DNA of 64,000 nt from Pseudomonadota bacterium (GTDB lineage Bacteria > Pseudomonadota > Gammaproteobacteria > Burkholderiales > SG8-39), in the NCBI GenBank assembly GCA_018241645.1, contig JAFEDL010000029.1, positions 36,389 to 100,388 on the forward strand, given 5' to 3'. The notes below the pieces were generated by a model. The model was not told where the DNA came from. It worked only from the letters and a program-made list of their open reading frames with translations, and ran no database searches. The number at the start of each line of letters is the position of its first letter. Position 1 is the first letter of the stretch. The translations under genes and the position numbers were made by a program. Positions 2,551 to 17,417 of the stretch are shown piece by piece.

Positions 2551-3093
2551 ATGCCTTTTTTCGACTCACTGCCGGCCGACGCCGGCGTCCGCCACATCCT
2601 CCAGCTGAACAAGCCGGCCGGACGCGCGTTGATCGAGTTTCACGAGGCGCTGCTGCGCGGCGATTCGCCGCTCAGCCCGGCGCAGCTCGAATTGATCGCC
2701 GCCTACGTTTCGGGGCTGAACGCCTGCCACTATTGCTATGGCGTTCATTCCGAGACCGCGCGATCGTACGGCCTGGAGCCCGGGGTGCTGGAGGCAATGC
2801 TCGCGGATCCCGACTCGGCGCCGGTCGATGCAAGGATGCGCCCGCTGCTTCATTACGCGCGCAAACTCACCCTTACCCCGTCGCGAATGATGCAGTCGGA
2901 TGCCGACGCCGTGCTCGCCGCAGGCTGGAGCGAGCGGGCGCTGCACGACGCAGTGCTGACCGTCTGCCTGTTCAATTTCATGAACCGGCTGCTGGAAGGA
3001 CACGGCTGCAAAGGCGCGCCGGAGGCATTCGCCACGCGGGGCAAAGCGCTCATGGACGAGGGCTACGCGCCGTTGCTCAAATTCCTGGAGTAA
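2551..3093 (+). CDS. Carboxymuconolactone decarboxylase / AhpD-like peroxidase-related protein
   Basis: CHYCYGVH CxxC motif. AAGGAG RBS 8 nt upstream of ATG 2551. The ORF-track start at 2515 lacks an RBS. Confidence 0.75.
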   Translation: MPFFDSLPADAGVRHILQLNKPAGRALIEFHEALLRGDSPLSPAQLELIAAYVSGLNACHYCYGVHSETARSYGLEPGVLEAMLADPDSAPVDARMRPLLHYARKLTLTPSRMMQSDADAVLAAGWSERALHDAVLTVCLFNFMNRLLEGHGCKGAPEAFATRGKALMDEGYAPLLKFLE

Positions 3094-3133: not shown

Positions 3134-3661
3134 TCAGGCGTCCCCGCGCGCCGGATAGTTCTTCGCGATGACGAAGTCGAGGCTTTGCAGGATTTCGTTG
3201 AAGTGCGGCCGGCCGAACGGCATGGTCGAAGTGGTGCCCCAGTACAGTCGTCCATCCGGCCGAACGATGTAGAGGCCCGGCTCGTTGAACAGGTCAGGCT
3301 CAACCACGCCCGCCGAGGTCATCCCATTTGAGCGGGAAACGTAAAGGCCCCATTCGCGTACGTCCGCGATCGACAGCCCGTGCCCGATGCGCAGGTTCTT
3401 CAGGCCCCAACCGGCTTTCGCCTGCTCGGCACGGTCTTGCGGATCCGAACTGGCGGCGATGACCGATACACCCCGTTTCTCGAATTCCGGGAGCAGGGTT
3501 TCCAGTTCCGAGAGATAACGCCGGCAGATTGGGCAGTGCAGGCCCCGATAGAACACAACCATCGTGAATTGCTGCGGCCTCTCGCCTGCGAGCGAGAAAG
3601 TCCCGCCTCCTGCGAGGTCTAGTTCCAACATCGGCACCGCTTGGTTCGGGATGAGTGACAT
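3134..3661 (-). CDS. Peroxiredoxin-like (AhpC/TSA-redoxin family) protein
   Basis: MSLIPNQ...FYRGLHCPICRRYL... on a thioredoxin-fold peroxiredoxin-like layout. The upstream part of the 221-aa ORF is Arg-rich junk. Confidence 0.75.
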   Translation of the reverse strand: MSLIPNQAVPMLELDLAGGGTFSLAGERPQQFTMVVFYRGLHCPICRRYLSELETLLPEFEKRGVSVIAASSDPQDRAEQAKAGWGLKNLRIGHGLSIADVREWGLYVSRSNGMTSAGVVEPDLFNEPGLYIVRPDGRLYWGTTSTMPFGRPHFNEILQSLDFVIAKNYPARGDA

Positions 3662-3684: not shown

Positions 3685-4164
3685 TTATCGGTCCGCCGCT
3701 TCGCGCACGATCTTCTCGAAAACCGGATCGAGCTCCCGTGCCATCGCATTCAGTTCGGCGCTGCCATAAGGCGCAAATACCGCGCTGGGGGAGCGCCAAG
3801 TCACGCTGGTCTTCCCGTCGGCCTCCTCGACCAGGTAGATCCGGATCGGCGCTTCGATGCCCGCAGGCACGCTCGCCGCGAGCATCCTTACCGCGTAATC
3901 ATTGCGAAACACCATCAATACGAGATTGCCGCGGATCTTCACTCCGCGTGCGGCTGCGCCGCGACTCGCGCTTGCCTGCGCGACGAGCCCCATCTTGTTC
4001 GACTCGATCGACTTTTCCAGGCGACCGGCCAGCACATCGAAAGCGTACCTCGAGGTTACGCTGTTGGTCCCAGGATATGCCGGGAGCGACTGGGCGAAAG
4101 CAGCGTGCGACACGAGCATGAGCGCCGTGGCGAAAGTGCCCAGGCTGCTGAAAAGTATCTTCAT
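3685..4164 (-). CDS. Secreted DUF302-domain protein
   Basis: Signal peptide MKILFSSLGTFATALMLVSHAAFA, then a DUF302-like core (VLMVFRNDYAVRML...IRIYLVEEADGKT). Confidence 0.7.
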   Translation of the reverse strand: MKILFSSLGTFATALMLVSHAAFAQSLPAYPGTNSVTSRYAFDVLAGRLEKSIESNKMGLVAQASASRGAAARGVKIRGNLVLMVFRNDYAVRMLAASVPAGIEAPIRIYLVEEADGKTSVTWRSPSAVFAPYGSAELNAMARELDPVFEKIVREAADR

Positions 4165-4364
4165 CTGGAGTACCCCTTTGGGTTTGGCGTAAATCGTGAT
4201 CTCTGCGCGATTCAACGGCTGTTGATCGCCTTGCTTTGCCGGCTGATGCTTGGACGCGGGCACAAGCCGATTTCTTACGCCAAGGTCATGCAATGCCGTT
4301 CGGCAGCAAGACGCAGGCGCTAAAATGATCGATCGCAGCACATGAAGCGCCTGGGAGGCTGGGA

Positions 4365-4940
4365 GTGGCGGGGAAAGAGACGGATCTGGCGAGAGAACTC
4401 GAATCGCATCGCGATTACCTCGTGCGATTCGCGCTATTCATGCTGCGCGACCTGGCGCTCGCGGAGGACGCCGTACAGGAGACGTTCATCTCCGCTCTTG
4501 CGAGCCATGAAGAATTCCAAGGTCGCTCGCAATTGCGTACCTGGCTGACGGCGATCCTGAAGAACAAGGTGTTCGACCTCGTGCGCAGCCGAAGCAAGGG
4601 CCCGCCGATGGTTTCTTCGGACGACTTACAGGAAGACGACGGCAGGGACGGCGCATTCGGCGAGAGGGGGCAGTGGATTGACCCCCCGTCGAACTGGGGT
4701 TTGCCCGAGGAAGCCTTCGAGTCGAGCCAGTTCTGGGAAACCTACTTGAAATGCTGCAAGGTCATGCCGGAGCGCCAGGCGCTGGTGTTCTCGATGCGCG
4801 AGGTGTTGGGCCTCTCAGCCGAAGAAATATGTAAGAAACTCGAACTGACCACGTCCAATCTCCATGTGATCCTTTTCAGGGCGCGGCAGAGTTTGCGCAC
4901 GTGCATGACGAAAAACTGGTTTGGTGGCGAACATGGGTAA
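4365..4940 (+). CDS. ECF (group IV sigma-70) RNA polymerase sigma factor
   Basis: Region 2 (YLVRFALFMLRDLALAEDAVQETF) and region 4 (LSAEEICKKLELTTSNLHVILFRARQSL) are both recognisable. Confidence 0.85.
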   Translation: MAGKETDLARELESHRDYLVRFALFMLRDLALAEDAVQETFISALASHEEFQGRSQLRTWLTAILKNKVFDLVRSRSKGPPMVSSDDLQEDDGRDGAFGERGQWIDPPSNWGLPEEAFESSQFWETYLKCCKVMPERQALVFSMREVLGLSAEEICKKLELTTSNLHVILFRARQSLRTCMTKNWFGGEHG

Positions 4941-5136
4941 GCTGATGTATTCGTGCGAGCAGGCCGCAAGACTCAGCTCGCGGGCGATGGAAGAGCCTCT
5001 GGGGCCCGTGGATCGGACGATGCTGAGGCTCCACCTGATGATGTGCGCCAATTGCACGAATTTCTCCCGCCAGATCGAGTTCCTCCGCCGAGCTTCGCGC
5101 AAGGTCCCGGAAGCCATCGATAGGGGAAAAACCTGA
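4921..5136 (+). CDS. zf-HC2 type anti-sigma factor
   Basis: 71 aa. Overlaps the sigma gene by 20 nt. H-x3-C-x2-C motif (HLMMCANC). Confidence 0.7.
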   Translation: MVANMGKLMYSCEQAARLSSRAMEEPLGPVDRTMLRLHLMMCANCTNFSRQIEFLRRASRKVPEAIDRGKT

Positions 5137-5172: not shown

Positions 5173-6570
5173 ATGAATGAACTGCAGACTTACCTGTTCT
5201 GGGGATTTCTCCTCGCGTTCGGCGCGGTGATGTACCTGGTGGTGCCGAAATCCGAAGATGAGGCCGGATTTTTCCGCGGCCACGATTCGCAGGGCCGGCC
5301 CGCCTCCGAGTGGGCGCTGATGTTGAGCATCTTCATCAGCTGGATATTCGCCAAGTCGGTGACCAATGCGGCGAACCTCGGGGCGGCCTACGGCATCGTC
5401 GGCGGACTTGCCTACGCCGCGTACTGGCTTTCGATCCCCGTCGCCGGCCTGGTCATCTACCGGCTGCGCACCCGGGAGGGCGCAACCGGCCTGGTGCCGT
5501 TCCTGATCGGGAAATACGGCCGCGGCGCGGCGCTTGCGTTCTCGGCGGCGATCCTGATCCGGCTGTTCAACGAAGTGTGGAGCAACACCGCGGTGGTCGG
5601 CGGCTACTACGGCGACAGCGGTTCACCAGGCTTTATCTTCTCGGCGCTGCTGTTTACCGCGGCGGTGCTGTTCTACAGCTTGAAAGGCGGATTGCGCAGC
5701 TCGATCTTCAGCGACGTGATCCAGGCGATCGTGTTCATCCTGTTCCTGGGCGTGGTGCTGGCGTTCGTGCTGCCGAATCACACTCCCCGGGTACTGCTGA
5801 CAGAAGGCGATTTCGCGCTGAGTTCCGGCGTCGACCTGCTGCTGGTCGCGCTATTGCAGGTCGTGTCCTACCCGTTCCACGACCCGGTGCTGACCGACCG
5901 CGGATTCATCACGCGCGAGAAGACCATGCTCCGGGCGTTTGTCGCGGCCGGAGCGCTCGGATTCCTGGCGATACTCGCATTCAGCCTCGTCGGCGTGCAC
6001 GCGCGCCTCGAGGGCTTCAAGCCGAGCGGCAACGTTCCGGCGGAGGTCGCAAGAGGGCTGGGTTTCGCGGGATTTTTCGCGATGGTCGTAGTGATGGTCA
6101 CATCGGCCGGCTCCACGCTGGACTCGACTTTCACGTCATTGTCGAAGCTGGTGGCGCGGGAGCTCCCGCTGCTTGCCGGCCGGCTGCCTTCGCCGAAGGC
6201 CATGACCATCGGATCGCTGGCGATGGTGGCGTTTGCGCTGCTCGGCAACGTACCGATGATTGCGGGAACCGACATCCTCAAGGCGACCACGATCAGCGGC
6301 ACCATGGTCATTGGGCTGGCGCCGGTCTTCCTCTTGTCCCGCTGGGTACGCTATTCGCCGGCATCGTTCCATCTCGCATTCTGGACGGGCATCGCCCTCG
6401 GTGTGCTCCAGGCCGTCGACATGGTTCCCGCCAGCTGGGCAATCGGGAGTGGCAAGTACGGGATCCTGCTCGGAACCAATCTATACGGCCTGGTGCTTTG
6501 CACCGCCGGCTTCCTGCTGCCCTTGGCGTTGCCCCGACGTCGCATGGCTTCATCCGGGAGTGCGGCGTAG
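5173..6570 (+). CDS. Polytopic membrane transporter, sodium:solute symporter-like
   Basis: 465 aa, about 12 hydrophobic segments, SSS-like N-terminus. The family call is tentative. Confidence 0.55.
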   Translation: MNELQTYLFWGFLLAFGAVMYLVVPKSEDEAGFFRGHDSQGRPASEWALMLSIFISWIFAKSVTNAANLGAAYGIVGGLAYAAYWLSIPVAGLVIYRLRTREGATGLVPFLIGKYGRGAALAFSAAILIRLFNEVWSNTAVVGGYYGDSGSPGFIFSALLFTAAVLFYSLKGGLRSSIFSDVIQAIVFILFLGVVLAFVLPNHTPRVLLTEGDFALSSGVDLLLVALLQVVSYPFHDPVLTDRGFITREKTMLRAFVAAGALGFLAILAFSLVGVHARLEGFKPSGNVPAEVARGLGFAGFFAMVVVMVTSAGSTLDSTFTSLSKLVARELPLLAGRLPSPKAMTIGSLAMVAFALLGNVPMIAGTDILKATTISGTMVIGLAPVFLLSRWVRYSPASFHLAFWTGIALGVLQAVDMVPASWAIGSGKYGILLGTNLYGLVLCTAGFLLPLALPRRRMASSGSAA

Positions 6571-6573
6571 CCT

Positions 6574-7260
6574 TTACAGGCCGAGGATTTCCGGCAAGGC
6601 CGCCAGCGTGCTGATTTCGCCATCCGGAAGTTCGGGGATGCGCTCCGGCGCCTGGCCGAACCGATTGCACCAGACCACGTGAAATCCGAACGCCTTGGCC
6701 GCGTGCGCGTCCCATGCGTTGGAAGACAGGAAGCAGATCTCCTCCCGCTCGATCCCGAACTGCGTGGTCGCAAGCGCATACACCGAGGGATGGGGCTTGA
6801 ATACTTTGACTTCCTCAACTGATATGACTGCGTCCAGCAGGCTGGCGATCCTCGAATTCTCGGTGGCTGCCCCCAGCATTCGCGGCGAACCGTTGGAGAG
6901 GATCGCAAGCCTCATGCCGCCCGCCTTGAGGCGCTCGAGCGTGCCCTTTACCTCCGGGTAACTGCTGAGCCTGAGGTAGGACTCCATCAACCGGGTGCGC
7001 AGGACCGGGTCGGCGATCTTCAGGCTCGTCATAGCGTAGTCCAGCGCGTCTCCCGTGACCTGCCAGAAGTCCGCGTGGCGGCCCATGAGGCCCCGCAGCC
7101 AGGTGTACTGCAGTTGCTTTGTTCGCCACAGGTCTGCGAGCGGCTGCCACTTGTCCCCCAACGCGTCGCTTTCGGCCGCGGCGGCGCTATTGACGTCGAA
7201 CAATGTGCCGTACGCGTCGAACACGCATGCACGGATTCCGGTGAGGCGAAGCGGTGTCAT
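6574..7260 (-). CDS. Haloacid dehalogenase type II (HAD superfamily)
   Basis: ACVFDAYGTLFDV nucleophile motif, SNGSPRML, and SSNAWDAHAAKAFG. Confidence 0.85.
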   Translation of the reverse strand: MTPLRLTGIRACVFDAYGTLFDVNSAAAAESDALGDKWQPLADLWRTKQLQYTWLRGLMGRHADFWQVTGDALDYAMTSLKIADPVLRTRLMESYLRLSSYPEVKGTLERLKAGGMRLAILSNGSPRMLGAATENSRIASLLDAVISVEEVKVFKPHPSVYALATTQFGIEREEICFLSSNAWDAHAAKAFGFHVVWCNRFGQAPERIPELPDGEISTLAALPEILGL

Positions 7261-8603
7261 TCTTTTCCCCTTGGCGAATGCCCTTTGATTTGCGAGTACT
7301 GCCTGTCCGCACCAACCACCGTAACACGCCGTGGTTGAATCCCGGCTTCCTGGCCGGGCAACGGCCGGCGCTCCTCATTGAAGGTGAAGCCGGAGCGCAG
7401 GGAAGCGGCGAGCGCGGTACGGATCATTTTTTCCCCGCGAACGGCCGGTCCGCCGGCCAGCAACGACTCGAAGAGGCCCGCGTAAAAGGCGTCGGGTTCG
7501 ACGCGCATCCGGTAGGTCAGTGACACAGCGTTAGGGTGAATGGTCTCGAGATAGTCGAACGTTGCCGCCTCGTCGGGCGCCAGCCGTGTATCGGATATCT
7601 CAGTCGACAGGTCCGCTGAAACAACGCGAGCGATCACGTATTGGCGGAGCGTACCCCGCAGCATCTTCCCTGCCCGGTCGGACTGGAAGATCTCGGCGAT
7701 CACCTTGGGCGTCACATAAGTCGGGAACCGGTGCCCGGTACCGGTATTGCGGACCTCGAGGCTCGCCTGGATTGCGGGGCCCGCGCGGACCGGATCCGAT
7801 GCACGCATCGTCACGCCGCCCCGCATGGTCGGTTCGTCATGGACCCCGCGCCACAGATGGCGCCGGTCCGGCATGTGACACGACTGGCAAGCGCGCCCTT
7901 CCTTCGCGTAGCGGCTCGCCTTCCATTCCTCGTAGGTGTTTTCGAGATACTTCCCGTTCAAGGCGAAGTCGCCTTCCCCGAACTGGTGGCATGCGGCGCA
8001 GAACTTCGAATCCTCAAACGCGGCGCTTGCGCTCCAACCGCCGTGGGGAAGGCCGGTGTCTGTCGCCAACGGTGCGCTGCCGTCGCGCCTTGGCGGCCCG
8101 AAGCGGATGTGCTGGCGAACATGACAACCCGCGCAGGTCAGCCCCCGCTCGTGAGCCCCTGGGCGTGCGTGTGCAGTTTTGTCTGCGATCGCCTCGGACA
8201 GGCTAGTCGCCTGCTCGGACAAGGGCGCGTGGCAGCGGATACACGCCTGGTGCTCCTCGCGTGCTTCCGGCGCCATGTCGACCAACTGGCCGAGCACGCC
8301 CGGTCCCATGGCCCGTGAATGAAGCGACGCCTTCCAGTCGCTGAACTGGCCCGCATGACAGGCGCCGCAGGCTTCCGGGTCAAGCGCATGCCCCGCTGTG
8401 CCGAAGCCGGCCGGAACGGGACCCTGAGGCCCGATCGGTCGCTGCCAATGACGGCCGAGAAATCCATCGATCGCGCCAGTTCGGACACCCGACCCGTCCG
8501 TGGGCAGCGGCTTCTCGCCGCACCCAGCCAACAGGAAGAAAAGGACGAGGACGGCAAGCCTCCTGCCGTTCGCAATCAGGAATTGCCCATGCCGGCGTGA
8601 CAT
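7257..8603 (-). CDS. Pentaheme c-type cytochrome lipoprotein
   Basis: Lipobox LLAGC. Five CxxCH motifs (CGACH, CIRCH, CAGCH, CAACH, CQSCH). 4-nt ATGA overlap with the downstream HAD gene. Confidence 0.8.
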   Translation of the reverse strand: MSRRHGQFLIANGRRLAVLVLFFLLAGCGEKPLPTDGSGVRTGAIDGFLGRHWQRPIGPQGPVPAGFGTAGHALDPEACGACHAGQFSDWKASLHSRAMGPGVLGQLVDMAPEAREEHQACIRCHAPLSEQATSLSEAIADKTAHARPGAHERGLTCAGCHVRQHIRFGPPRRDGSAPLATDTGLPHGGWSASAAFEDSKFCAACHQFGEGDFALNGKYLENTYEEWKASRYAKEGRACQSCHMPDRRHLWRGVHDEPTMRGGVTMRASDPVRAGPAIQASLEVRNTGTGHRFPTYVTPKVIAEIFQSDRAGKMLRGTLRQYVIARVVSADLSTEISDTRLAPDEAATFDYLETIHPNAVSLTYRMRVEPDAFYAGLFESLLAGGPAVRGEKMIRTALAASLRSGFTFNEERRPLPGQEAGIQPRRVTVVGADRQYSQIKGHSPRGKE

Positions 8604-8703
8604 TCTTCGGTTCGCAGCTTACCCGCGGCCGGGGAAATCCGAACGGATTCCCCCGGGTCCTGTTGCCAGCCCAGCAATCGGCACAGGGCTTGTGGGCCCC
8701 GCG

Positions 8704-8934
8704 TTACTTCTTTTTCGCCGCGCAGGGGTTCTTGGCAGCGCACGGATTTTTCGCAGCGCACGGATTCGCTTTCGCCCCGCACGGGTTCTTCTTTGCGGCG
8801 CACGGATTGGATTTCGCCGCACACGGATTCTTCTTCGCGGCGCAGGGATTCGCCTGGGCATGGGCCATCGGGACTGCCAGTGCGAGCGCGGCGGTGCCGA
8901 GGGCCAGGCGGACGTGCTTCATGTCGATCTTCAT
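8704..8934 (-). CDS. Secreted cysteine-repeat peptide: signal peptide plus seven NPC(A/G)AK repeats
   Basis: MKIDMKHVRLALGTAALALAVPMAHA / QANPCAAKKNPCAAKSNPCAAKKNPCGAKANPCAAKNPCAAKNPCAAKKK. The repeats differ at synonymous codon positions. Confidence 0.7.
   Translation of the reverse strand: MKIDMKHVRLALGTAALALAVPMAHAQANPCAAKKNPCAAKSNPCAAKKNPCGAKANPCAAKNPCAAKNPCAAKKK
8707..8850 (-). repeat. Coding tandem repeat of 18-21 nt units encoding NPCAAK(K)
   Basis: Seven units seen in translation. They also generate the mirror repeat FAAHGF in the antisense ORF 8597..9064. Confidence 0.8.
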
Positions 8935-9119
8935 GGTGGGTTCCTGTCAGGTTGGGGACGTAATTGTCTTGCTGCGAAATTTCCGCGGCAGGCATCTGAC
9001 GAGGGCACTGCCAGGAACCTTACACATCCGCCACGGGTTGCAGTTGGCCGTGACTGCACTGTAAGGATCCGGGTTGCCAGGCGGTCTAACCGGCACCAAT
9101 CATCGAAGGGGTTCGGGAA

Positions 9120-9515
9120 ATGCGCGCATTCAACTCACTTTGCCGGTCGGCGTTGCTGCTTGCGGTCGGGATGTTCATGTCGGGCGCGATCGCGGCGGCC
9201 GAACGGCCCTACTCGGATGCAGAGTTTGCAGCGACACAGCGCGCAGGCAAGCCGGTACTGCTCGCCGTGCATGCCGACTGGTGTCCGACCTGCCGGGCGC
9301 AAGAGCAGGTCCTGAAAGAGTTGCTCACGGACAAGCGGTACGCGGGCATCTCGGTTTTTCGCGTCGACTTCGACTCGCAAAAGGCGGTACTCAAGCGGTT
9401 CGGGGTCCGAACCCAGAGCACGTTGATCCTGTTCAAGGGGACCACCGAGGTTTCCCGCTCAATCGCACAGACTGACCGAAACGCGATCGCCGCGGATCTC
9501 GCGAAAGCGCTGTAG
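9120..9515 (+). CDS. Periplasmic thioredoxin-family protein
   Basis: Signal peptide plus the WCPTC active site. Confidence 0.8.
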   Translation: MRAFNSLCRSALLLAVGMFMSGAIAAAERPYSDAEFAATQRAGKPVLLAVHADWCPTCRAQEQVLKELLTDKRYAGISVFRVDFDSQKAVLKRFGVRTQSTLILFKGTTEVSRSIAQTDRNAIAADLAKAL

Positions 9516-9528
9516 CCGGGAGCAGGGA

Positions 9529-10257
9529 ATGGAGTTCGGCCTGGGTACCTACGGAATCGCGTTCGCCGCGGGAGGACTCTCCACGCTCTCCCCGTGCGTT
9601 CTGCCACTGGTGCCGATTCTTATCGGATCGGCCCTGACCGCGCATCGGTTCGGCGCATGGGCGCTCGCCGGAGGCTTGGCCCTGTCGTTCACGCTGGTAG
9701 GCGCCCTGCTCGCCAGCCTCGGTGCCACCTCCGGCCTGGACCCGGATGCTCTGCGCACCGTCGCAGCGGTGATGTTGCTTGTATTCGGGGGCCTACTGGT
9801 GTCACAACGACTGCAGGATCGCTTTGCGCTTGCCACCGCCGGGGTCTCCGGAGCCGGACAAAATATGCTTTCCGGGTTGTCGGCTGACGGGCTGTCCGGA
9901 CAGTTCACTCTCGGATTGCTCCTGGGCATTGTGTGGAGCCCCTGCGTCGGACCTACGCTGGGGGCGGCAATCACTCTTGCGAGTCAAGGCGAACACCTGA
10001 GCCAGGTCGCGCTGGTCATGGCGCTGTTCGGGCTCGGCGCAGGGATTCCGCTCATCGTACTTGGAACGCTATCGCGCCAGGCGATGAGCCGCATTCGGGG
10101 GCGGCTCCTGTTCGCGGGACGTAACGGAAAAAAAATTCTGGGCGTGGCGATGCTGATTCTCGCCGCCTTCATTTTGACGGGTGCGGACAAGAGTGCTGAA
10201 AGCTGGATCCTGGACGTGACACCCGACTGGGTTACCCGCGTCGGCACGCAGCTATAG
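9529..10257 (+). CDS. ccdA: Cytochrome c biogenesis / thiol-disulfide electron transporter CcdA (DsbD family)
   Basis: 242 aa, six TM segments, with the conserved Cys pair in LSPCVLPLVP and VWSPCVGP. Confidence 0.85.
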   Translation: MEFGLGTYGIAFAAGGLSTLSPCVLPLVPILIGSALTAHRFGAWALAGGLALSFTLVGALLASLGATSGLDPDALRTVAAVMLLVFGGLLVSQRLQDRFALATAGVSGAGQNMLSGLSADGLSGQFTLGLLLGIVWSPCVGPTLGAAITLASQGEHLSQVALVMALFGLGAGIPLIVLGTLSRQAMSRIRGRLLFAGRNGKKILGVAMLILAAFILTGADKSAESWILDVTPDWVTRVGTQL

Positions 10258-10399
10258 AGCGCTGGTGTAAGTTTTCCGCGCACCACGGTGTCTCATCAAC
10301 ACGGCGAGCGCAAAGATGTTGGATCCGCGGGTCGGCTGCCGGTACGAATCCGACAGCCCCCTGCAGGCGCGCTTCGCATACCCACCAAAGGGAGTACAA

Positions 10400-11047
10400 A
10401 TGAACCTGAACCTTCGCCCCATGACTGCCGCGATGCTGTCGTCCGGATTGTTGCTTGGCGTGCCACCAGCCTCGGCCAATCCGTGCGCCCCGCGCGCAAA
10501 CGCACCGATGCAGTTGGCGCAGAACCCGTGTGCCGCCAAAAAGAACCCCTGTGCAGCGAAAAATCCCTGCGCGGCTAAGAACCCCTGCGGGGCGGGCGGC
10601 GTCAACCCGAACCTGGTCACCCGTCCGGCCGGAAGCAAGCCGTTTGCAGGCAACAAAGCGGAGCTTGTCGCGCTGGGCGAGAAGCTCTGGTCCGACACCA
10701 AGCTGAGCTCCAACGGCCTTTCCTGCGTGACGTGCCACCAGGGCAACAACGCTTTCAATGCCAGTTTCGCAAAGCCCTACCCGCACCTCGTTGCCATGGC
10801 GGACGATCAGTCGAAGTTGAAGCGGATTACGATGGAACAGATGGTCCAGTTCTGCATGGTCGTTCCGATGGCGGCGAAGCCGCTGGCCTGGGATTCCAGG
10901 GAACTCGCGGCATTGACCGCGTACACCGGTGTGGTGCAAATGGGGTTCACCAAGACTGGTGCGAAAAATCCTTGCAGCGCGAAAAATCCATGTGCGGCCA
11001 AAAACCCCTGCGCAGCGAGGAACCCCTGCGCAGCGAGGAAGAAGTAG
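10400..11047 (+). CDS. Monoheme c-type cytochrome flanked by N- and C-terminal NPCAAK repeat tracts
   Basis: AAAGGGAG RBS upstream of ATG 10400. Signal peptide, five N-terminal NPC units, heme site LSCVTCHQG in a CCP-like context (LWSDTKLSSNG), and five C-terminal NPC units. Confidence 0.8.
   Translation: MNLNLRPMTAAMLSSGLLLGVPPASANPCAPRANAPMQLAQNPCAAKKNPCAAKNPCAAKNPCGAGGVNPNLVTRPAGSKPFAGNKAELVALGEKLWSDTKLSSNGLSCVTCHQGNNAFNASFAKPYPHLVAMADDQSKLKRITMEQMVQFCMVVPMAAKPLAWDSRELAALTAYTGVVQMGFTKTGAKNPCSAKNPCAAKNPCAARNPCAARKK
10475..10591 (+). repeat. Coding NPC(A)AK tandem repeat (N-terminal tract of the cytochrome)
   Basis: ANPCAPR...QNPCAAKKNPCAAKNPCAAKNPCGAG. Confidence 0.75.
10940..11044 (+). 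repeat. Coding NPC(A/S)A(K/R) tandem repeat (C-terminal tract of the cytochrome)
   Basis: GAKNPCSAKNPCAAKNPCAAKNPCAARNPCAARKK. Confidence 0.75.
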
Positions 11048-11054
11048 GCAGCGC

Positions 11055-11822
11055 ATGAACGGGCGCGCGGCATTGGCTGAAGGGGATGGGCTTCACGATT
11101 CCGCGTGCGCCGTGCCGCGCCTTGCGTCCCTTACCCGGGGGGAACTGCTGTCAATGCGCGCCGCCGGGCTGGACGTGCTCGAATTCCAGCGGGTCCTGGC
11201 CAAGGGCGGCTTGAACATCGTCGGCGAACTGCTGCGCGGAGCAGATGGTTTCGTCGAGTACGACCACTACCCGGAAGACGACGTATTCGATGCGGATTCG
11301 GGTGCGCAGTACTACTACCACGCGCATCGCGGATTGCACGGCGAGCACGGGCATTTTCACACCTTCCTGCGCGCGCGCGGGATGCCGGCCGGCGTCTCCC
11401 TGTCGGATATGCCGCACGCCGAACCCTGGCCCGAGGGCAACGACGCGCTTTGCCACCTGATCTCCATATCGATGGATGCCTACGGCGCGCCGATCGGCCT
11501 GTTCGCACCGAACCGCTGGGTGACCGGCGACACCTGGTACCCGGCCGACGAGGTCGTCAGAATGCTCGACTGCTTCCGCATCGATCATGCAAATCCGTCC
11601 TGGCCAGTCAATCGCTGGCTGGGTGCCATGTTCCTGCTGTACCGGCCTCACATCATCGAGCTGCTCCACGCACGTGATCGCAAGATCGCACTGTGGCGAG
11701 AGAAGCACCCCCGGGAAGACGTACTCGAGGATCGCGAACTGGAAATCCTCGCGCATCTTCCGATTTCCATAGCGGCCACGATGTCCGAGCTGGACATGGC
11801 CCTCGCAGTAGCAACCCGTTGA
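11055..11822 (+). CDS. Conserved hypothetical protein (His-rich motif YYYHAHRGLHGEHGHFHTF)
   Basis: 255 aa, starting 7 nt after the cytochrome stop. I could not assign a family. Confidence 0.5.
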   Translation: MNGRAALAEGDGLHDSACAVPRLASLTRGELLSMRAAGLDVLEFQRVLAKGGLNIVGELLRGADGFVEYDHYPEDDVFDADSGAQYYYHAHRGLHGEHGHFHTFLRARGMPAGVSLSDMPHAEPWPEGNDALCHLISISMDAYGAPIGLFAPNRWVTGDTWYPADEVVRMLDCFRIDHANPSWPVNRWLGAMFLLYRPHIIELLHARDRKIALWREKHPREDVLEDRELEILAHLPISIAATMSELDMALAVATR

Positions 11823-11832
11823 ACTTCCCGCC

Positions 11833-12300
11833 ATGGACCTTCGAAAAATATTGATTGCTGGCTTGGTGCTTGCCGCACCGGTGGCGTCGCTTTTGGCACA
11901 GTCCGGGCCCAAATCCCCGCTGATCGAACTGACCCAGATCCCCTGCCAGTTCCTGGAGAGTGAGGACGGGCGGGACCGCGGCTTCAAGGCTGCCGCGGCG
12001 AAGGATTGCGAGGCGATCAACGCGCGCGGCGGCAGGCAACGGGTGGCGGAATCTAAGACGATCGAACTCAGGCCGGGCAAGTACATCTTTCGCGTAACCA
12101 ACAAGAACGTGCCCTATGAACTTGGCTTCTGGGTGCGCGGCGAATCTCTGGTCGATCGTGCCCGGCTGCCGAGCGTATCCGGTGGGGGATTGACCTCCGG
12201 GAAGACGCAGGACTACGCCATCGAACTCAAGGCCGGCAATTACGTCTATTCCTGCCCCTTGAATCCCACGCCCGACTACAAGCTCGTCGTGAGGAACTGA
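11833..12300 (+). CDS. Secreted cupredoxin-like beta-sandwich protein lacking a full type-1 copper ligand set
   Basis: Signal peptide. GKYIFRVTNKN...YELGFWV...AGNYVYSCPLNPTPDYKLVV resembles a cupredoxin C-terminal loop but has no His or Met after the Cys. Confidence 0.45.
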   Translation: MDLRKILIAGLVLAAPVASLLAQSGPKSPLIELTQIPCQFLESEDGRDRGFKAAAAKDCEAINARGGRQRVAESKTIELRPGKYIFRVTNKNVPYELGFWVRGESLVDRARLPSVSGGGLTSGKTQDYAIELKAGNYVYSCPLNPTPDYKLVVRN

Positions 12301-13446
12301 TTGCCAAAGGTGCAGGCGGGACCGCTCTGCAGCGCGGCCGCGATCTGCGCGTTACTGATCGCAGCCGTCTGGGGCCAGGGCCCGCGAATGGTCCTGCTTG
12401 CCACAATCGGCATCCTCCTGGGAATCACGCTCTTCCATTCGTCCTTCGGCTTCGCGTCGGCCTACCGGCGGCTGCTCGAAGGCCGCGGGGTACGCGCCGT
12501 GCAGGCGCAGATCCTGATGCTCGCCGCAGCAACGCTGCTCTTTACGCCGGTCCTCGCCCAAGGTGAATTTTTCGGTCGCGAAGTAGTCGGCGCAATCGCC
12601 CCGGCCGGCATACCGGTGGCACTGGGCGCGTTCCTGTTCGGAATCGGCATGCAGCTGGCAGGCGGGTGCGGGTCGGGCACCCTCTATGCAGCAGGCGCCG
12701 GGCAAGGGCGCATGGTCCTGGTCCTCGGCGCCTTCTGCGCCGGTGCGTTCTGGGCGAGCCTTCACATGGGTCTTTGGGAGCGGCTCCCCGCTTTTGAACC
12801 CATGGCCCTTGGGGACGCGCTCGGGTGGCCGATTGCGGTCGTGTTGCAACTGGCCTTGTTCGGCGTGCTGCATGGCCTGCTCGGCAGGCTCCCCGGGGCC
12901 GGCGCCGATGCATCGCCCCGGATTGCCGCATCGCTGCAGCGAGTCTGGCGCGGCCCCTGGACTCCCGAGGTCGGGGCGCTTGTCCTCGCCGGGCTGGCTT
13001 TTCTGACGCTGATTGTGGCGGGCCACCCGTGGTCGATCACCTGGGCGTTCACGCTGTGGGGAGCGAAGGCGGCAGTGGCGCTGGGCTGGGAACCGGGCGC
13101 AAGCGAATTCTGGGCCGCGGCATTCCAGCGCGAATCGCTCGAGTCAGGGGTGCTTTCTGACGTAACCTCGGTCATGGATATCGGGATTCTTGCAGGCGCC
13201 TTCCTGGCGGCAGGCTGGGCGGGCGGATTCAGGCCGCGCCTCGGCCCCACTCCGCGCGCCGTGCTGGTCGCGATGCTGGGCGGCGTCGCGATGGGGTATG
13301 GCGCACGTATAGCGTTCGGTTGCAACGTCGGCGCGTTCTTTTCTGGCATTGCCAGTACCAGCCTGCACGGCTGGCTGTGGATCGCCAGCGCGCTGCCCGG
13401 AAGCTGGGTCGGCCTGAAACTTCACGCGCGCCTGGCGATCCGGTAG
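12301..13446 (+). CDS. YeeE/YedE-family sulfur-compound (thiosulfate-type) transporter
   Basis: Two sulfur-transport half-domains with GGCGSGTLY and FGCNVGAFFSG. The start is uncertain: TTG at 12301 abuts the previous stop, and the alternative is ATG 12388. Confidence 0.8.
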   Translation: MPKVQAGPLCSAAAICALLIAAVWGQGPRMVLLATIGILLGITLFHSSFGFASAYRRLLEGRGVRAVQAQILMLAAATLLFTPVLAQGEFFGREVVGAIAPAGIPVALGAFLFGIGMQLAGGCGSGTLYAAGAGQGRMVLVLGAFCAGAFWASLHMGLWERLPAFEPMALGDALGWPIAVVLQLALFGVLHGLLGRLPGAGADASPRIAASLQRVWRGPWTPEVGALVLAGLAFLTLIVAGHPWSITWAFTLWGAKAAVALGWEPGASEFWAAAFQRESLESGVLSDVTSVMDIGILAGAFLAAGWAGGFRPRLGPTPRAVLVAMLGGVAMGYGARIAFGCNVGAFFSGIASTSLHGWLWIASALPGSWVGLKLHARLAIR

Positions 13447-13462
13447 GCGCGGGACTTCATTC

Positions 13463-14155
13463 ATGGATGTGCCCACCCGCAAACCCAGCAGCCGCTGGTT
13501 CGCCGCAATTGCCGCCGTGATCCTGGTGACGATCCTTGTTGCGATCTACCTCGTACTGCACCAGACGGGAACACTCGGCACACTCCTCGACAGTGCGGCA
13601 CTGCACGCGCTGGTTGAACGGCTGGGCCCTTGGGGGCCCATCGCAATCATCGCGCTGATGGTGCTTTCCGTCGCGATCAGTCCGATCCCCAGCGCGCCGA
13701 TCGCGATGGCTGCCGGTGCGGCGTATGGGCATCTTTGGGGCACGCTTTACGTGGTCGTCGGCGCGGAGATAGGCGCACTGACGGCGTTCGGCGTCGCCCG
13801 CCTGGTCGGCCAGGCCGCGCTGTACCGATGGTTCGGCGAGCGCCTCTCGACCGGCCTGATCGGGTCCCAGAACGCATTGACTGGCATCGTCTTCGTCAGC
13901 CGCCTGCTGCCCTTTGTGTCGTTCGACCTGGTGAGCTACGCCGCAGGCCTGACGCTGCTTTCGCCCTGGCGCTTCGCCCTCGCCACGCTCGCGGGCATCA
14001 TCCCCATGAGCTTTCTGCTGGCCCATTTCGGCACGGAACTGTCCAGCGGCGAGTCGGATCGATTCATGTACACCGCCCTGGGTCTGGGTCTGGTGACCGC
14101 GCTGCCGATTGGCGCGAAGCTCCTGCGTGACCGATACCGTCGGCGGAGCGCATGA
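13463..14155 (+). CDS. TVP38/TMEM64 (DedA-related) membrane protein
   Basis: VSRLLPFVSFDLVSYAAGLT signature. 230 aa, polytopic. Confidence 0.75.
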   Translation: MDVPTRKPSSRWFAAIAAVILVTILVAIYLVLHQTGTLGTLLDSAALHALVERLGPWGPIAIIALMVLSVAISPIPSAPIAMAAGAAYGHLWGTLYVVVGAEIGALTAFGVARLVGQAALYRWFGERLSTGLIGSQNALTGIVFVSRLLPFVSFDLVSYAAGLTLLSPWRFALATLAGIIPMSFLLAHFGTELSSGESDRFMYTALGLGLVTALPIGAKLLRDRYRRRSA

Positions 14156-14189: not shown

Positions 14190-15560
14190 ATGGAACCGAA
14201 CCCGCCCCACGACAAATCGGTACTGAGCTGGCTCGGATTGTGGCGGATCAGGCCGGACATGCACCTCCCGGCGCGCGTGGAGCGCGCCCTCGAGGAACTA
14301 CAAAAGCGAAGTGAGATCCTTATTGGCTGGGTGCAGGCGTCGCTGATTGCGGTGCTCGGTACTTTGTACCTCGTCGCGCCCAGCACTTCCCCCGCAGACG
14401 CGACATTCCGTCCGGTGCCGTGGGCGCTCGGCATCTACGCCGCGTTCACGTTGCTGCGGCTAGTGCTCGCATACCGCAACCGCCTCACCCCCGTGTTGAA
14501 GATCGCTTCGGTGCTGGTGGATATTTCGATGCTGATGATCACGATCTGGAGCTTCCACATCCAGTATTCCCAACCGGCGGCGTTCTACCTCAAGGCGCCG
14601 ACGCTCCTTTACGTATACATTTTCATCGTACTGCGCGCGCTGACCATCACGCCCGGCTACGTGATGTTTACGGGCCTGGTAGCCGCGGGCGGATGGCTGG
14701 CCCTGCTTGGGTATGCGCTGGCGGAACCGGGCGGCGCGGCACTCGTGACGCACGACTACGTCGAGTACATGACTTCGGCCAAGATCCTGGTTGGCGGGGA
14801 AGTGGATCGTGTCGTCTCTATCCTGATAGTGACCCTCGTGCTCTCGGTTTCGGTGGCACGCGCGCGGCAGCTCTTGTTCCAGGCAGTTGGCGACCAGGCA
14901 GCGCTTTCACAGTTGTCGCGCTTTTTCTCACCTGAAATCGCCGAGCGGCTGGCGCGCGCCGACGAACTGCTCCACTCTGGGGACGGCGAGCAGCGCGAAG
15001 CGGCGGCGATGTTCATCGACCTGCGCGGCTTTACCAAACTTGCTGCCGAACTCGCCCCTGCCAGCCTGATCGAGCTGCTGCGCGAATACCAGCGCGTGGC
15101 CGTGCCGATCATCCACAGGAACAACGGCAGCGTGTCGACCTACGTCGGCGACGGCATCATGGTGACCTTCGGCGCCACCCGGGCGTCCGGCACTCATTGT
15201 GCGGACGCAATGCGCTGTGCGGACGAACTGCTCACGGCGCTGGTCGGTTGGTGCATGGCGCGCGAAGCGAAAGGCCTTCCGGCGCCGGGCGTGGGCATCG
15301 GAGTGGAGGCGGGCACGGTCACCTGCGGCGTCATCGGCGACGAGGGCCGCCTCGAATACTCGATCATCGGCGACCCGGTGAACCGCGCCGCCAAGCTGCA
15401 GAACCACACCAAAGTCGAGGGCGTGCTCGGACTCGCGAGCATCGCCTGCCTCGAGCGCGCGCTTGCGCAGGGGTACTTGCCGAAGGGGCAGCAACGGGTA
15501 CTCGCCGATCGTGAGGTTGCGGGCGTCTCAGGCGCCATGACTGTCGTGGCTCTTGGGTGA
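14190..15560 (+). CDS. Membrane-anchored class III adenylate/guanylate cyclase
   Basis: N-terminal multi-TM domain, then a cyclase homology domain (AAMFIDLRGFTKL, YVGDGIMVTFG, GDPVNRAAKLQ). Confidence 0.85.
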   Translation: MEPNPPHDKSVLSWLGLWRIRPDMHLPARVERALEELQKRSEILIGWVQASLIAVLGTLYLVAPSTSPADATFRPVPWALGIYAAFTLLRLVLAYRNRLTPVLKIASVLVDISMLMITIWSFHIQYSQPAAFYLKAPTLLYVYIFIVLRALTITPGYVMFTGLVAAGGWLALLGYALAEPGGAALVTHDYVEYMTSAKILVGGEVDRVVSILIVTLVLSVSVARARQLLFQAVGDQAALSQLSRFFSPEIAERLARADELLHSGDGEQREAAAMFIDLRGFTKLAAELAPASLIELLREYQRVAVPIIHRNNGSVSTYVGDGIMVTFGATRASGTHCADAMRCADELLTALVGWCMAREAKGLPAPGVGIGVEAGTVTCGVIGDEGRLEYSIIGDPVNRAAKLQNHTKVEGVLGLASIACLERALAQGYLPKGQQRVLADREVAGVSGAMTVVALG

Positions 15561-16072: not shown

Positions 16073-16684
16073 ATGATGCCTGCTGACCTCCCCAACCGCT
16101 CCGTCGAATTCTTCGACACCCAGTTCCGCCGCCAGGCCGCGGCGGGCGAATACGCGCTCAATCCCTTTGAGCAGGCGGTTCTGCCTTTCCTCTCGGGCGA
16201 GACGCTCGACCTGGGCTGCGGACTCGGAAACCTTTCGCTGGCGGCAGCAGCGCGCGGCTGCATGGTGCTGGCGCTTGATGCGAGCGCCGCCGCAGTGGAA
16301 AGCCTTGCAGGGCGGGCCGCGGCAGGCGTGCTCCCGGTCCAAGCGCGGCAAGCCGACCTGCGGAACTACGCACCTTCACAAGAGTATGACTCGGTCGTGG
16401 CGATCGGCCTCGCCATGTTCTTCGCCTGCCCGGACGCCCATGCAATGATTGCGCGCATCCGCGCCGCCGTCCGCCCCGGCGGCGTGGCCGCCGTGAACGT
16501 GCTGATCGAAGGGACGACTTTCATGGGGATGTTCACGCCCGGGGACTATTGCCTGTTCGGCGAGCATTCCCTTGAAGAGGCCTTCGCAGGCTGGGCGGTC
16601 GAGTACCTGAAGTTTGACGCATTCCCCGCGCCCGGCGACACGGTGAAGCGCTTCTGCACGATGGTTGCGCGGCGGTCCCGGTGA
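16073..16684 (+). CDS. Class I SAM-dependent methyltransferase (TehB-like)
   Basis: SAM motif I LDLGCGLGNLSLAAAARG followed by VLALDAS. Confidence 0.8.
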   Translation: MMPADLPNRSVEFFDTQFRRQAAAGEYALNPFEQAVLPFLSGETLDLGCGLGNLSLAAAARGCMVLALDASAAAVESLAGRAAAGVLPVQARQADLRNYAPSQEYDSVVAIGLAMFFACPDAHAMIARIRAAVRPGGVAAVNVLIEGTTFMGMFTPGDYCLFGEHSLEEAFAGWAVEYLKFDAFPAPGDTVKRFCTMVARRSR

Positions 16685-17201: not shown

Positions 17202-17417
17202 ATGAGCGAAGTCTTACTCGAATCGACCCTGACCTGCCCGCACTGCGGCTACGTGAGCACGGAAACGATGCCGACGGACGCCTGCCTGTTCTTCCACGGC
17301 TGTGCCGGCTGCGGCGCGCGCCTCAAGCCCAAACCCGGCGATTGCTGCGTATTCTGCAGCTACGGTTCGGTGCCCTGCCCGCCCGTGCAGCAGGAACGGG
17401 GCTGCTGCAAAACCTGA
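17202..17417 (+). CDS. GDCCVxC-domain metal-binding protein
   Basis: 71 aa with CPHCG, GCAGCG and the GDCCVFCSYG motif. 11 Cys in total. Confidence 0.75.
   Translation: MSEVLLESTLTCPHCGYVSTETMPTDACLFFHGCAGCGARLKPKPGDCCVFCSYGSVPCPPVQQERGCCKT

Follow-up and report, generated by a model that had tools for sequence, protein, structure and literature searches.

Two described periplasmic systems offer the closest comparisons for the locus reported here. In Azospira suillum, SigF/NrsF controls MrpX, a sacrificial Met-rich periplasmic peptide that scavenges hypochlorite and is recycled by YedY (MsrP) (PMC4436054). Bufferins (BufA/DUF2282, with MNIO, DUF2063 and DoxX) are SigF-controlled, copper-binding, ribosomally synthesised and post-translationally modified peptides (RiPPs) of the periplasm (PMC11626156, PMC12452194). 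The sigma-F site of Caulobacter has been defined experimentally as GTAACC-N16-CGAA (PMC3511200), and the sigma-F regulon consists of periplasmic defences against metals and oxidants (PMC3511200, PMC11626156). Here, we analyse a 64,000-nt stretch of DNA (the window) from an uncultured betaproteobacterium, Burkholderiales SG8-39 (contig JAFEDL010000029.1 of assembly GCA_018241645.1, positions 36,389-100,388), which encodes exported proteins built on a tandem Cys-containing hexapeptide, NPCAAK (the NPC repeat). From its genes and promoter motifs, we propose that the region between 3.1 and 15.6 kb of the window is the regulon of a single TIGR02943-type extracytoplasmic function (ECF) sigma factor, held by a cytoplasmic ZAS-type anti-sigma factor. 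By analogy, and with less than even confidence, we read this regulon as encoding an ECF-controlled, inducible periplasmic thiol buffer against thiophilic toxicants, which would be kept reduced via a CcdA-thioredoxin pathway.

Two proteins of the window carry the repeat. The first is a Sec-exported peptide of 76 residues (8704..8934, minus strand) with seven NPC(A/G)AK units and a basic C-terminus. The second, the NPC-cytochrome (10397..11047, plus strand), has a single CVTCH heme-binding motif, with five NPC units on its N-terminal and four on its C-terminal side. The total is thus 16 NPC cysteines, and not the 17 counted when this DNA was first interpreted from its letters alone (the sequence-only reading). 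The repeats are not a chance feature, since 1325 Pro-Cys cysteines in 124 related proteins from the loci described below share the context K-N-P-C-A-A-K/R, mostly with a spacing of 6 residues and with 4 to 25 such cysteines per protein. Around these cysteines, Lys is found at -3 in 50%, Ala at +1 in 83%, Ala at +2 in 79% and Lys or Arg at +3 in 77% of cases; the value for Asn at -2 (89%) is partly a product of how segments were selected. All repeat proteins have Sec signal peptides, and every NPC-cytochrome inspected shows the same architecture, in which the signal peptide is followed by repeats, the core (about 112 residues) and further repeats at the C-terminus.

The NPC-cytochrome family is large. 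We found 1162 relatives in the protein collection, annotated as “cytochrome c peroxidase” or “hypothetical”, relatives in more than 1000 protein clusters, and relatives at 500 genomic stretches when one genome per species was scanned. The hosts include Burkholderiales, Gallionellaceae, Methylotenera, Rhodoferax, Dechloromonas, marine Gammaproteobacteria of the Oceanospirillales type, Methylomirabilota, Rokubacteria and Tectomicrobia; among them are groundwater Betaproteobacteria, iron oxidisers, methylotrophs and marine Gammaproteobacteria. We also observed that the GC-rich DNA encoding the repeats gives rise to long spurious open reading frames (ORFs) in the other frames and on the opposite strand, such as an antisense ORF of 155 codons at 8597-9064 (plus strand) in the window, and that public gene calls (P0281, P0304 and P0371) carry false N-terminal extensions, “EEPLRGEE...” or “AAQGF...”, derived from this DNA. 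Repeat genes are therefore probably under- or mis-annotated.

The sequence-only reading had called for a check of neighbourhood conservation. We carried it out on 80 genomic loci seeded on the cytochrome core, using tblastn with the window proteins and an unbiased clustering of called ORFs; counts in the fully flanked set refer to the 37 loci that extend 8 kb or more to either side, and to families found within 8 kb. In this set, NPC genes recur with DUF6969 (30 loci), YeeE (18), the ECF sigma factor (15), DUF302 (13) and the cupredoxin-like protein (12), and less often with the pentaheme cytochrome (8), thioredoxin (7) and CcdA (7). The haloacid dehalogenase (4), TVP38 (3) and cyclase (2) genes, earlier taken as parts of the module, turn out to be lineage-specific. 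About half of the 80 loci have a stand-alone NPC peptide gene next to that of the NPC-cytochrome. In the window itself, all genes of the earlier list were found, in the order and orientation given, using the ORF list together with Pfam and NCBIfam profile searches. That list was, however, too short: genes upstream of it, from a CMD/AhpD-like gene to an SSF permease gene, belong to the same recurrent set in the unbiased clusters, so the module is larger than had been delimited and runs further left to include the ECF sigma, ZAS anti-sigma, DUF302 and AhpC-like genes.

DUF6969 is the family that stands out. The window gene (11055..11822, or from an alternative start at 11112, plus strand; PF22308, E 1e-80) follows the NPC-cytochrome gene and had been noted as a “His-rich hypothetical”; it is the most conserved partner of all. 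Its link to the NPC genes was also seen from the other side, by seeding on DUF6969 in metagenome contigs: 59 loci reach far enough upstream, and in 49 of them an NPC gene of the same strand (37 cytochromes and 12 peptides) ends no more than 500 nt before DUF6969. Of the 10 exceptions, some have a pentaheme gene directly upstream of DUF6969, and four of these show the NPC-cytochrome gene beyond it; the others encode a shorter NPC-like peptide at that place. On the downstream side of DUF6969, 29 of 54 loci have a cupredoxin-like gene, 23 of 37 have YeeE and 18 of 40 have DUF302. DUF6969, a cytoplasmic protein, is the tightest partner of the NPC genes and a near-obligate one, and the core unit consists of an NPC gene, DUF6969, optionally a cupredoxin-like gene and DUF302, and YeeE.

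The genes of the window also share a promoter motif. K-mer counting upstream of NPC genes brought out TGTAAG with CG(T/A)C(T)AA 15-16 nt further on. The motif, TGTAAGG-N15/16-CG(T/A)CTAA, resembles the Caulobacter sigma-F site GTAACC-N16-CGAA. From 54 sites, we built a two-block position weight matrix (PWM) that was used with a threshold of 16 bits. Six matches reach this threshold in the window, compared with 0.35 expected from shuffles, and lowering the threshold to 12 bits adds none. All six lie at 4.2-14.2 kb, are oriented to gene starts and are within about 100 nt of them; four (P1, P2, P4 and P6) are outside the training set. P1 (GCGTAAGAAAT...CGCGTCCAA; 4250..4281, minus strand, 18.0 bits) is 86 nt upstream of the DUF302 gene, which the AhpC-like gene follows. 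P2 (4828..4858, plus strand, 26.5 bits) lies within the 3’ end of the sigma gene, with the anti-sigma and permease genes next. P3 (TGTGTAAGGTTCC...CGTCAGA; 8995..9026, minus strand, 21.7 bits) is about 60 nt upstream of the NPC peptide gene, and then come the pentaheme and dehalogenase genes. P4 (ACTGTAAGGATCC...GGTCTAA; 9058..9089, plus strand, 27.9 bits) is 30 nt upstream of the thioredoxin gene, followed by that of CcdA. P5 (GGTGTAAGTTTT...TGTCTCA; 10264..10295, plus strand, 16.9 bits) is about 100 nt upstream of the NPC-cytochrome gene, beyond which lie the DUF6969, cupredoxin-like, YeeE and TVP38 genes. P6 (14151..14182, plus strand, 21.7 bits) stands ahead of the cyclase gene.

These positions refine the earlier picture of two divergent units under one shared control region. 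The divergent spacer at 8935-9119 is indeed 185 nt long and holds two copies of the motif, P3 and P4, back to back, but there are at least six promoters overall. Gaps between the genes are 0-34 nt as had been stated, and the exceptional one, between the CcdA and NPC-cytochrome genes, measures about 139 nt as against the 142 claimed; P5 lies in it. The genes form a coherent, co-regulated module, as the sequence-only reading had envisaged, and not a chance neighbourhood. Across the 80 loci, the motif was matched 162 times, compared with 5 in shuffled sequence; it precedes the NPC-cytochrome gene in 34 of 71 cases and the NPC peptide gene in 23 of 42. A different pattern in the divergent spacer, GGAACC-N18-GTT, was considered as a SigR-type promoter facing the thioredoxin gene and rejected: no family of the 80 loci has an enrichment for it in its upstream regions, and its GGAACC corresponds, as reverse complement, to the TGTAAGGTTCC -35 element facing the NPC peptide gene. 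A scan of 2.4-16.2 kb for sigma-70 promoters and terminators returned no more sites than in shuffles.

The putative regulators are encoded at the left of the module. The sigma gene (4365..4940, plus strand; Pfam Sigma70_r2 and r4_2) belongs to the TIGR02943 family (208.5 bits, cut-off 162), which clustering places in 42 of the 80 loci. The anti-sigma gene (4921..5136, plus strand; Pfam zf-HC2, NF052368 61.8 bits, cut-off 50) overlaps the sigma stop codon and encodes a small soluble protein of 71 residues with a ZAS motif, Cys...H-x3-C-x2-C, and no transmembrane segment; other loci have a DUF3379-type membrane anti-sigma factor instead. Soluble anti-sigma factors of the ZAS type suggest, from what is known of the family, cytoplasmic sensing of thiol-reactive stress. 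Autoregulation, a hallmark of ECF sigma factors, is indicated by the presence of the motif ahead of 24 of 46 sigma genes in the 80 loci, all at sites outside the training set. In the window, P2 is the second-strongest site after P4 (27.9 bits) and would boost the anti-sigma factor, i.e. negative feedback, and not the sigma factor.

The pair of genes that would supply reducing power is at the centre of our functional proposal. The exported thioredoxin-fold protein (9120..9515, plus strand; Pfam Thioredoxin, E 1.4e-11) has the active site WCPTC, and the CcdA-type membrane thiol-disulfide electron transporter (9529..10257, plus strand; Pfam DsbD_TM, E 1.4e-14) retains both conserved cysteines, in SPCVLP and SPCVGP; the two genes are 13 nt apart with one promoter motif upstream. 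CcdA with an exported CxxC thioredoxin is an established supply of periplasmic reducing power. The link of this pair to the NPC proteins, suggested before from the window alone, is borne out in other genomes in two respects. Firstly, the motif stands ahead of the thioredoxin gene in 10 of 11 cases, at sites outside the training set. Secondly, in the 13 loci with a thioredoxin match, CcdA adjoins in all but one and the NPC-cytochrome gene adjoins directly in 8. Electron transfer from CcdA-thioredoxin to the NPC proteins is proposed on the strength of this co-regulation (10/11) and adjacency (8/13). The link is less general than had been implied, the pair being found nearby in only about 19% of loci. 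In addition, a tblastn search of plasmids yielded a sole find, on the Cupriavidus sp. KK10 chromid NZ_CP073678.1 (L081, 8800-10341): an unannotated, truncated NPC-cytochrome remnant directly upstream of an intact thioredoxin-ccdA pair. It corresponds to the C-terminal half of the core, with neither CxxCH nor repeats; CzcC/CzcB-like genes and an ECF sigma gene are nearby, and no strong motif match was found there.

CcdA with a thioredoxin-like partner is also a standard aid to cytochrome c maturation, and the same genes could be read as a mosaic stress island without integrated chemistry. The pair would then only keep the CxxCH motifs of two c-type cytochromes reduced for heme attachment, which the many extra cysteines would hamper, and the remaining genes would act independently. 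The absence of thioredoxin and CcdA from about 80% of NPC loci and the highly variable accessory content of the loci agree with this view. Against it, a single motif precedes six units of the window and recurs before the sigma, NPC and thioredoxin genes of other genomes, and the core order of NPC gene, DUF6969, cupredoxin-like gene/DUF302 and YeeE is kept in lineages as distant as Methylomirabilota and Rokubacteria. We consider such a mosaic very unlikely.

In the thiol-buffer reading that we prefer, thiol-reactive stress would release the sigma factor, which would fire the six TGTAAGG-N15/16-CG(T/A)CTAA promoters. Flexible, lysine-rich NPCAAK repeats would then be exported, both as a free peptide and as the two tails of a SoxA/TsdA-like monoheme cytochrome, and CcdA-thioredoxin would carry cytoplasmic reducing power to the periplasm, keeping the repeat cysteines in, or returning them to, the thiol state. 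The repeats would form a high-capacity periplasmic thiol pool that catches thiophilic toxicants before they reach the cytoplasm; a number of 4 to 25 copies per protein is as expected for a capacity function. Candidate toxicants are Cu, Hg, As, Cd, Se/Te oxyanions, or thiol-oxidising or alkylating agents. A low-potential heme, the pentaheme lipoprotein and the cupredoxin-fold protein might connect this thiol chemistry to electron transfer, and the YeeE-family channel and the cytoplasmic, His-rich DUF6969 may handle the product or serve the repeat proteins.

The genomic context is consistent with such a role. Among the 80 loci, neighbours related to mercury (MerR in 10 loci, MerT in 5), arsenic (the radical-SAM protein ArsS in 10, an ArsM-like methyltransferase in 5) and selenium (SelD fused to a flavoprotein in 6) were found, together with EgtB (4), the bufferin precursor DUF2282 (4), the MNIO enzyme (6) and GDCCVxC proteins (7, in addition to the window). 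At least one Hg, As, Se, bufferin, GDCCVxC or EgtB gene lies within 10 kb in 34 of the 80. Further recurrent neighbours are glutathione-reductase-like flavoproteins, glutaredoxin, TlpA-like proteins, AraC regulators and c-di-GMP enzymes. Sox, Dsr and SQR genes were not recognised among the annotated recurrent families, some clusters having no annotation. Between the two options previously left open, sulfur handling or a soft metal or metalloid, the Mer, Ars, Sel, bufferin and GDCCVxC neighbours favour the latter, i.e. soft metal(loid) or thiol stress. The motif precedes the ArsM-like gene in 3 of 5 cases. It also precedes the bufferin precursor DUF2282 gene in 3 of 4, which suggests that one ECF sigma factor co-controls bufferins and NPC proteins.

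Several individual arrangements were noted in the same loci. Bufferin genes, for the DUF2282 precursor, the MNIO enzyme or both, adjoin NPC modules in L013, L023, L027, L033, L034, L046 and L075, with DUF2063 and DoxX in L034. ArsS genes, scoring above their cut-off, and ArsM-like and TIGR04282/04283-like genes occur near NPC modules in Gallionellaceae and Sideroxydans (L049, L061, L066, L072, L075 and others). A GDCCVxC gene directly follows the NPC peptide-DUF6969 pair in several loci of the Gallionellaceae type.

The heme domain of the NPC-cytochrome points in another direction. Its core, in which CxxCH, YPH, M, QxC and PM are invariant in the alignment, matches the SoxA/TsdA cytochrome c domain PF21342 (38.3 bits, cut-off 27; E 1.4e-9). 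The invariant Cys of QxC aligns, in a weak match of the PDB profile search (E 0.059), with Cys114 of Rhodovulum SoxA (1h31_A), which we take to be the axial ligand of heme 1 in that structure. Given this weak alignment, His/Cys ligation is a possibility for the NPC-cytochrome, and our proposal takes its heme to be probably so ligated and of low potential; the invariant His of YPH and Met of PM are other candidate axial ligands. On the SoxA equivalog model TIGR04484, the protein scores 28 bits, under the cut-off of 110, and with a single CxxCH it has no second heme.

The YeeE/YedE-family membrane protein (12301..13446, plus strand) has a full-length Sulf_transp domain (Pfam, 202 bits) with conserved Cys123 and Cys341, and its linkage, pointed out previously in the window, is conserved: it is present in 18 of the 37 fully flanked loci and in 23 of 37 DUF6969-seeded ones. 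YeeE-family proteins are established thiosulfate importers. The window protein remains under the subfamily cut-offs, with 74.6 bits on NF052577 (cut-off 400) and 42.9 on NF041049 (cut-off 645) for TsuA, and 121.5 on NF033796 (cut-off 350) for YedE. Between DUF6969 and YeeE is the gene of an exported protein (11833..12300, plus strand) with no Pfam match. An AlphaFold model of moderate quality (pLDDT 69) gave Foldseek matches to the EfeO N-domain (5.6e-5), nitrosocyanin (9e-4), amicyanin and rusticyanin, so that the earlier “cupredoxin-like” call holds structurally. The family has 3890 homologues, and none of the 120 listed has a Pfam family recorded. In an alignment of 36 sequences, three cysteines are invariant, among them Cys141 in YSCPLNPTPDY; of the type 1 copper ligand set His/Cys/His/Met, only this Cys141 is conserved, no His or Met being invariant. 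The site is therefore not a standard blue-copper site. DUF302 family members, present in 25 of the 80 loci, are usually encoded between the cupredoxin-like gene and YeeE.

A Sox/TsdA-like handling of sulfur could be built from these parts. The NPC cysteines would be swinging-arm carriers like the SoxY cysteine; the His/Cys heme would load them oxidatively with thiosulfate or sulfane sulfur, and electrons would leave via the pentaheme and cupredoxin-fold proteins; thioredoxin/CcdA would free the bound sulfur, and YeeE would import thiosulfate or a related anion for a DUF6969 enzyme. The PF21342 match, the alignment of the invariant Cys with SoxA Cys114, the linkage of a thiosulfate-importing family in about 50-62% of loci and the lysine-rich repeats, which would attract anions, all speak for it. 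Yet the SoxA alignment is weak, the equivalog score of 28 bits is far from 110, YeeE falls far under the TsuA cut-offs, and only one heme is present; no SoxX, SoxYZ, SoxB, Dsr, SQR or TusA-like partner was recognised among the annotated recurrent neighbours. The stress-type ECF/ZAS control and the Hg, As, Se and Cu neighbours also fit detoxification better. We therefore regard sulfur handling as unlikely.

The preferred reading, that of a thiol buffer, has its own difficulties. Genes in the loci were called by a crude ORF method, and the sequences that trained the PWM came from upstream of NPC genes, which makes the motif counts for these genes partly circular. No copy of the motif stands upstream of the sigma gene of the window, unlike 24 of 46 such genes elsewhere, and thioredoxin/CcdA accompany the NPC gene in less than a fifth of the loci. 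The function itself is argued from context and analogy, and the proposed His/Cys ligation leans on the SoxA alignment discussed above. A thiol buffer needs no heme domain, pentaheme cytochrome, cupredoxin-fold protein, YeeE or DUF6969, although the last is the tightest partner, and the hexapeptide is conserved across phyla far beyond the need of a simple sacrificial sink. MrpX, in contrast, shows no sequence conservation (PMC4436054). Conservation of this kind points to enzyme recognition or to a defined structure.

DUF6969 would be a candidate for such an enzyme. The family has about 4000 relatives and falls into 1222 clusters when grouped at 50% identity; almost all members consist of this domain alone, with a length of 220-290 residues and no signal peptide. 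Eight His, including HxH and HxHxH on neighbouring strands, and acidic residues are invariant. An AlphaFold2 (AF2) model was obtained with high confidence (pLDDT 93, pTM 0.91), and a Foldseek search of the PDB gave no match to it (best E 0.96, TM no higher than 0.21); a relaxed Pfam scan revealed no second family. Domain fusions among the 1222 clusters gave no functional clue. A minority (P0399, P0430) joins DUF6969 to a coiled coil of about 250 residues, a single transmembrane segment and, at the C-terminus, a bacterial SH3_3 domain, a layout resembling that of a transmembrane signalling or anchoring protein, and the rest are mis-called N-terminal extensions. The position of the transmembrane segment and SH3_3 after DUF6969 in these rare fusions agrees with a cytoplasmic DUF6969 and does not indicate a function.

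By analogy with bufferins, NPC proteins could be precursors whose cysteines are turned into metal-binding groups by DUF6969, acting as a cytoplasmic multi-His metalloenzyme before Sec export, to yield periplasmic metallophore peptides and a metallophore-tailed cytochrome. The near-obligatory order of NPC gene and DUF6969 (49/59), tighter than that of DUF6969 and YeeE (23/37), is what such a pairing would produce, and DUF6969 is the sole cytoplasmic protein of the operon, with its eight invariant His and acidic residues on adjacent strands and a confident model matching nothing in the PDB. The hexapeptide is as strongly conserved as would be expected of an enzyme recognition site. Bufferins, too, carry a Sec signal and modified cysteines, bind Cu and are controlled by a related ECF sigma factor, and their clusters adjoin NPC modules and share the motif. 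On the other side, DUF6969 has no similarity to known modifying enzymes, no RiPP recognition element or partner protein was detected, and MNIO and DUF2063 genes are not in the window; converting the cysteines would also leave less obvious need for a dedicated thioredoxin/CcdA. Modification by DUF6969 seems to us somewhat less likely still than sulfur handling. In the same improbable but consequential case, DUF6969 would be a new class of multi-His metalloenzyme and the NPCAAK repeats, modified before export, would be new ribosomal periplasmic metallophores or redox polymers. It would also entail, with the same slim chance, the first cytochrome c with modified tails, under sigma-F-like ECF control alongside bufferins.

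The remaining genes of the module are briefly described here. The pentaheme c-type cytochrome (7257..8603, minus strand) is a lipoprotein with the lipobox LLAGC and five CxxCH motifs, all retained in 21 of 22 homologues, and a conserved C-terminal domain, NxGxGHxFPTYVTP. Its best PDB relative is a 435-residue chain deposited as “cytochrome c552” (5ze8_A, E 0.024), and the gene was found in 24-25 of the 80 loci. It overlaps by 4 nt the gene of the type II haloacid dehalogenase (HAD; 6574..7260, minus strand; TIGR01428 209.8 bits, cut-off 125), which is translationally coupled to it. To the left, a CMD/AhpD-like “peroxidase-related” protein (2551..3093, plus strand; Pfam CMD, TIGR01926 88 bits, cut-off 81.8) belongs to a family present in 23 of the 80 loci and has no preceding motif in the window. 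The DUF302 protein (3685..4164, minus strand; Pfam DUF302) has a signal peptide. The second gene of its unit encodes an AhpC/TSA-type redoxin (3134..3661, minus strand; Pfam AhpC-TSA, E 8e-13) with a CPIC motif and no signal peptide, of a family found in 10 of the 80 loci. At 5173..6570 (plus strand) lies the gene of a sodium:solute symporter superfamily permease with a weak Pfam SSF match; ORF clustering places its family in 7 of the 80 loci. At the right end lie the VTT/TVP38 (DedA-like) membrane protein (13463..14155, plus strand; Pfam VTT_dom) and the membrane-anchored class III nucleotidyl cyclase (14190..15560, start possibly 14259, plus strand; Pfam Guanylate_cyc). Further right, we observed three more genes. 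The first (16073-16684) encodes a TehB-like SAM methyltransferase that does not reach its cut-off, the second (17202-17417) a protein with a GDCCVxC domain (NF041374, 103.7 bits), and the third (17473-18138) a regulator of the Crp/Fnr type.

The earlier statement that no system of such composition had been described stands: literature searches on the repeat, DUF6969 and related terms found none. Searches on NPCAAK and its variants, DUF6969, DUF3379, ECF18/TIGR02943 and DUF302 with YeeE returned nothing relevant, no NCBIfam model covers DUF6969, the cupredoxin-like protein or either of the NPC families (cytochrome and peptide), and Pfam lists DUF6969 only as a domain of unknown function. Several parts of the module have counterparts in known pathways. 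Like CcdA-ResA/CcsX, DsbD-DsbC/G and ScsB-ScsC, it pairs a two-Cys membrane transporter with an exported CxxC thioredoxin, encoded 13 nt apart; unlike them, it places this pair under a stress-type ECF promoter and directly beside candidate Cys-repeat clients. With SoxAX-SoxYZ and TsdA, it shares the fold family of the heme domain and flexible cysteines nearby that could accept a substrate; a conserved Cys also aligns, if weakly, with a heme-ligand position. The module differs from them in having a single heme, with no SoxX, SoxYZ or SoxB recognised, in a score below the SoxA cut-off and in being stress-regulated. Its YeeE resembles TsuA/YeeE-TsuB and YedE in the full-length Sulf_transp domain, with a conserved Cys in each of two half-channels, and departs from TsuA and YedE in falling below both subfamily cut-offs, with no TusA-like partner seen, and in being coupled to DUF6969, DUF302 and the cupredoxin-like protein.

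The likeness to SigF/NrsF-MrpX is one of logic only. In both systems, an ECF sigma/anti-sigma pair governs a small regulon through a shared promoter, and the product is a charged peptide, probably unfolded and exported by the Sec route, in which one sulfur amino acid open to oxidation is abundant, together with a system to re-reduce it. Here, the Cys sit in a strict hexapeptide, in contrast to the scattered Met of MrpX, and the repeats are also fused to a cytochrome; recycling is proposed to proceed through CcdA-thioredoxin instead of a molybdoenzyme, and Pfam scans found no Oxidored_molyb gene. The anti-sigma factor is of the zf-HC2/ZAS or DUF3379 type and not NrsF (DUF1109), and the MrpX system has no counterparts of DUF6969, YeeE or the cupredoxin-like protein.

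Bufferins share more of the layout: Cys-containing products with a Sec signal peptide, a precursor gene followed by that of a cytoplasmic metalloenzyme (putative here), a sigma-F-like promoter (GTAACC-N16-CGAA, compared with TGTAAGG-N15/16-CGxC here) and a metal-stress context, with the two kinds of module physically adjacent in some genomes. They differ in that no MNIO (DUF692) or DUF2063 is present in the window, the partner being DUF6969, of unrelated fold; in related loci, the MNIO gene adjoins DUF2282 and not the NPC genes. The NPC substrate is a tandem hexapeptide, also borne by a heme protein, and its modification is hypothetical. The NPC peptides may overlap with the “CxxxxC” family of MNIO-associated precursors that has been published. 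Since the promoter motif is defined, the regulon is directly testable, and if our reading is true, three large families would gain testable roles (DUF6969 with about 4000 members, the cupredoxin-fold family with about 3900, and the YeeE subfamily). Together, these comparisons give the regulatory and functional logic of the module precedents and leave it a real possibility that the chemistry itself is new. If the reading holds, the module would be a poly-cysteine “sponge”, encoded genetically and equipped with heme wiring and a reductant supply of its own, and would add a third exported, sigma-controlled periplasmic protectant to the Met-rich sinks and the bufferin metallophores.

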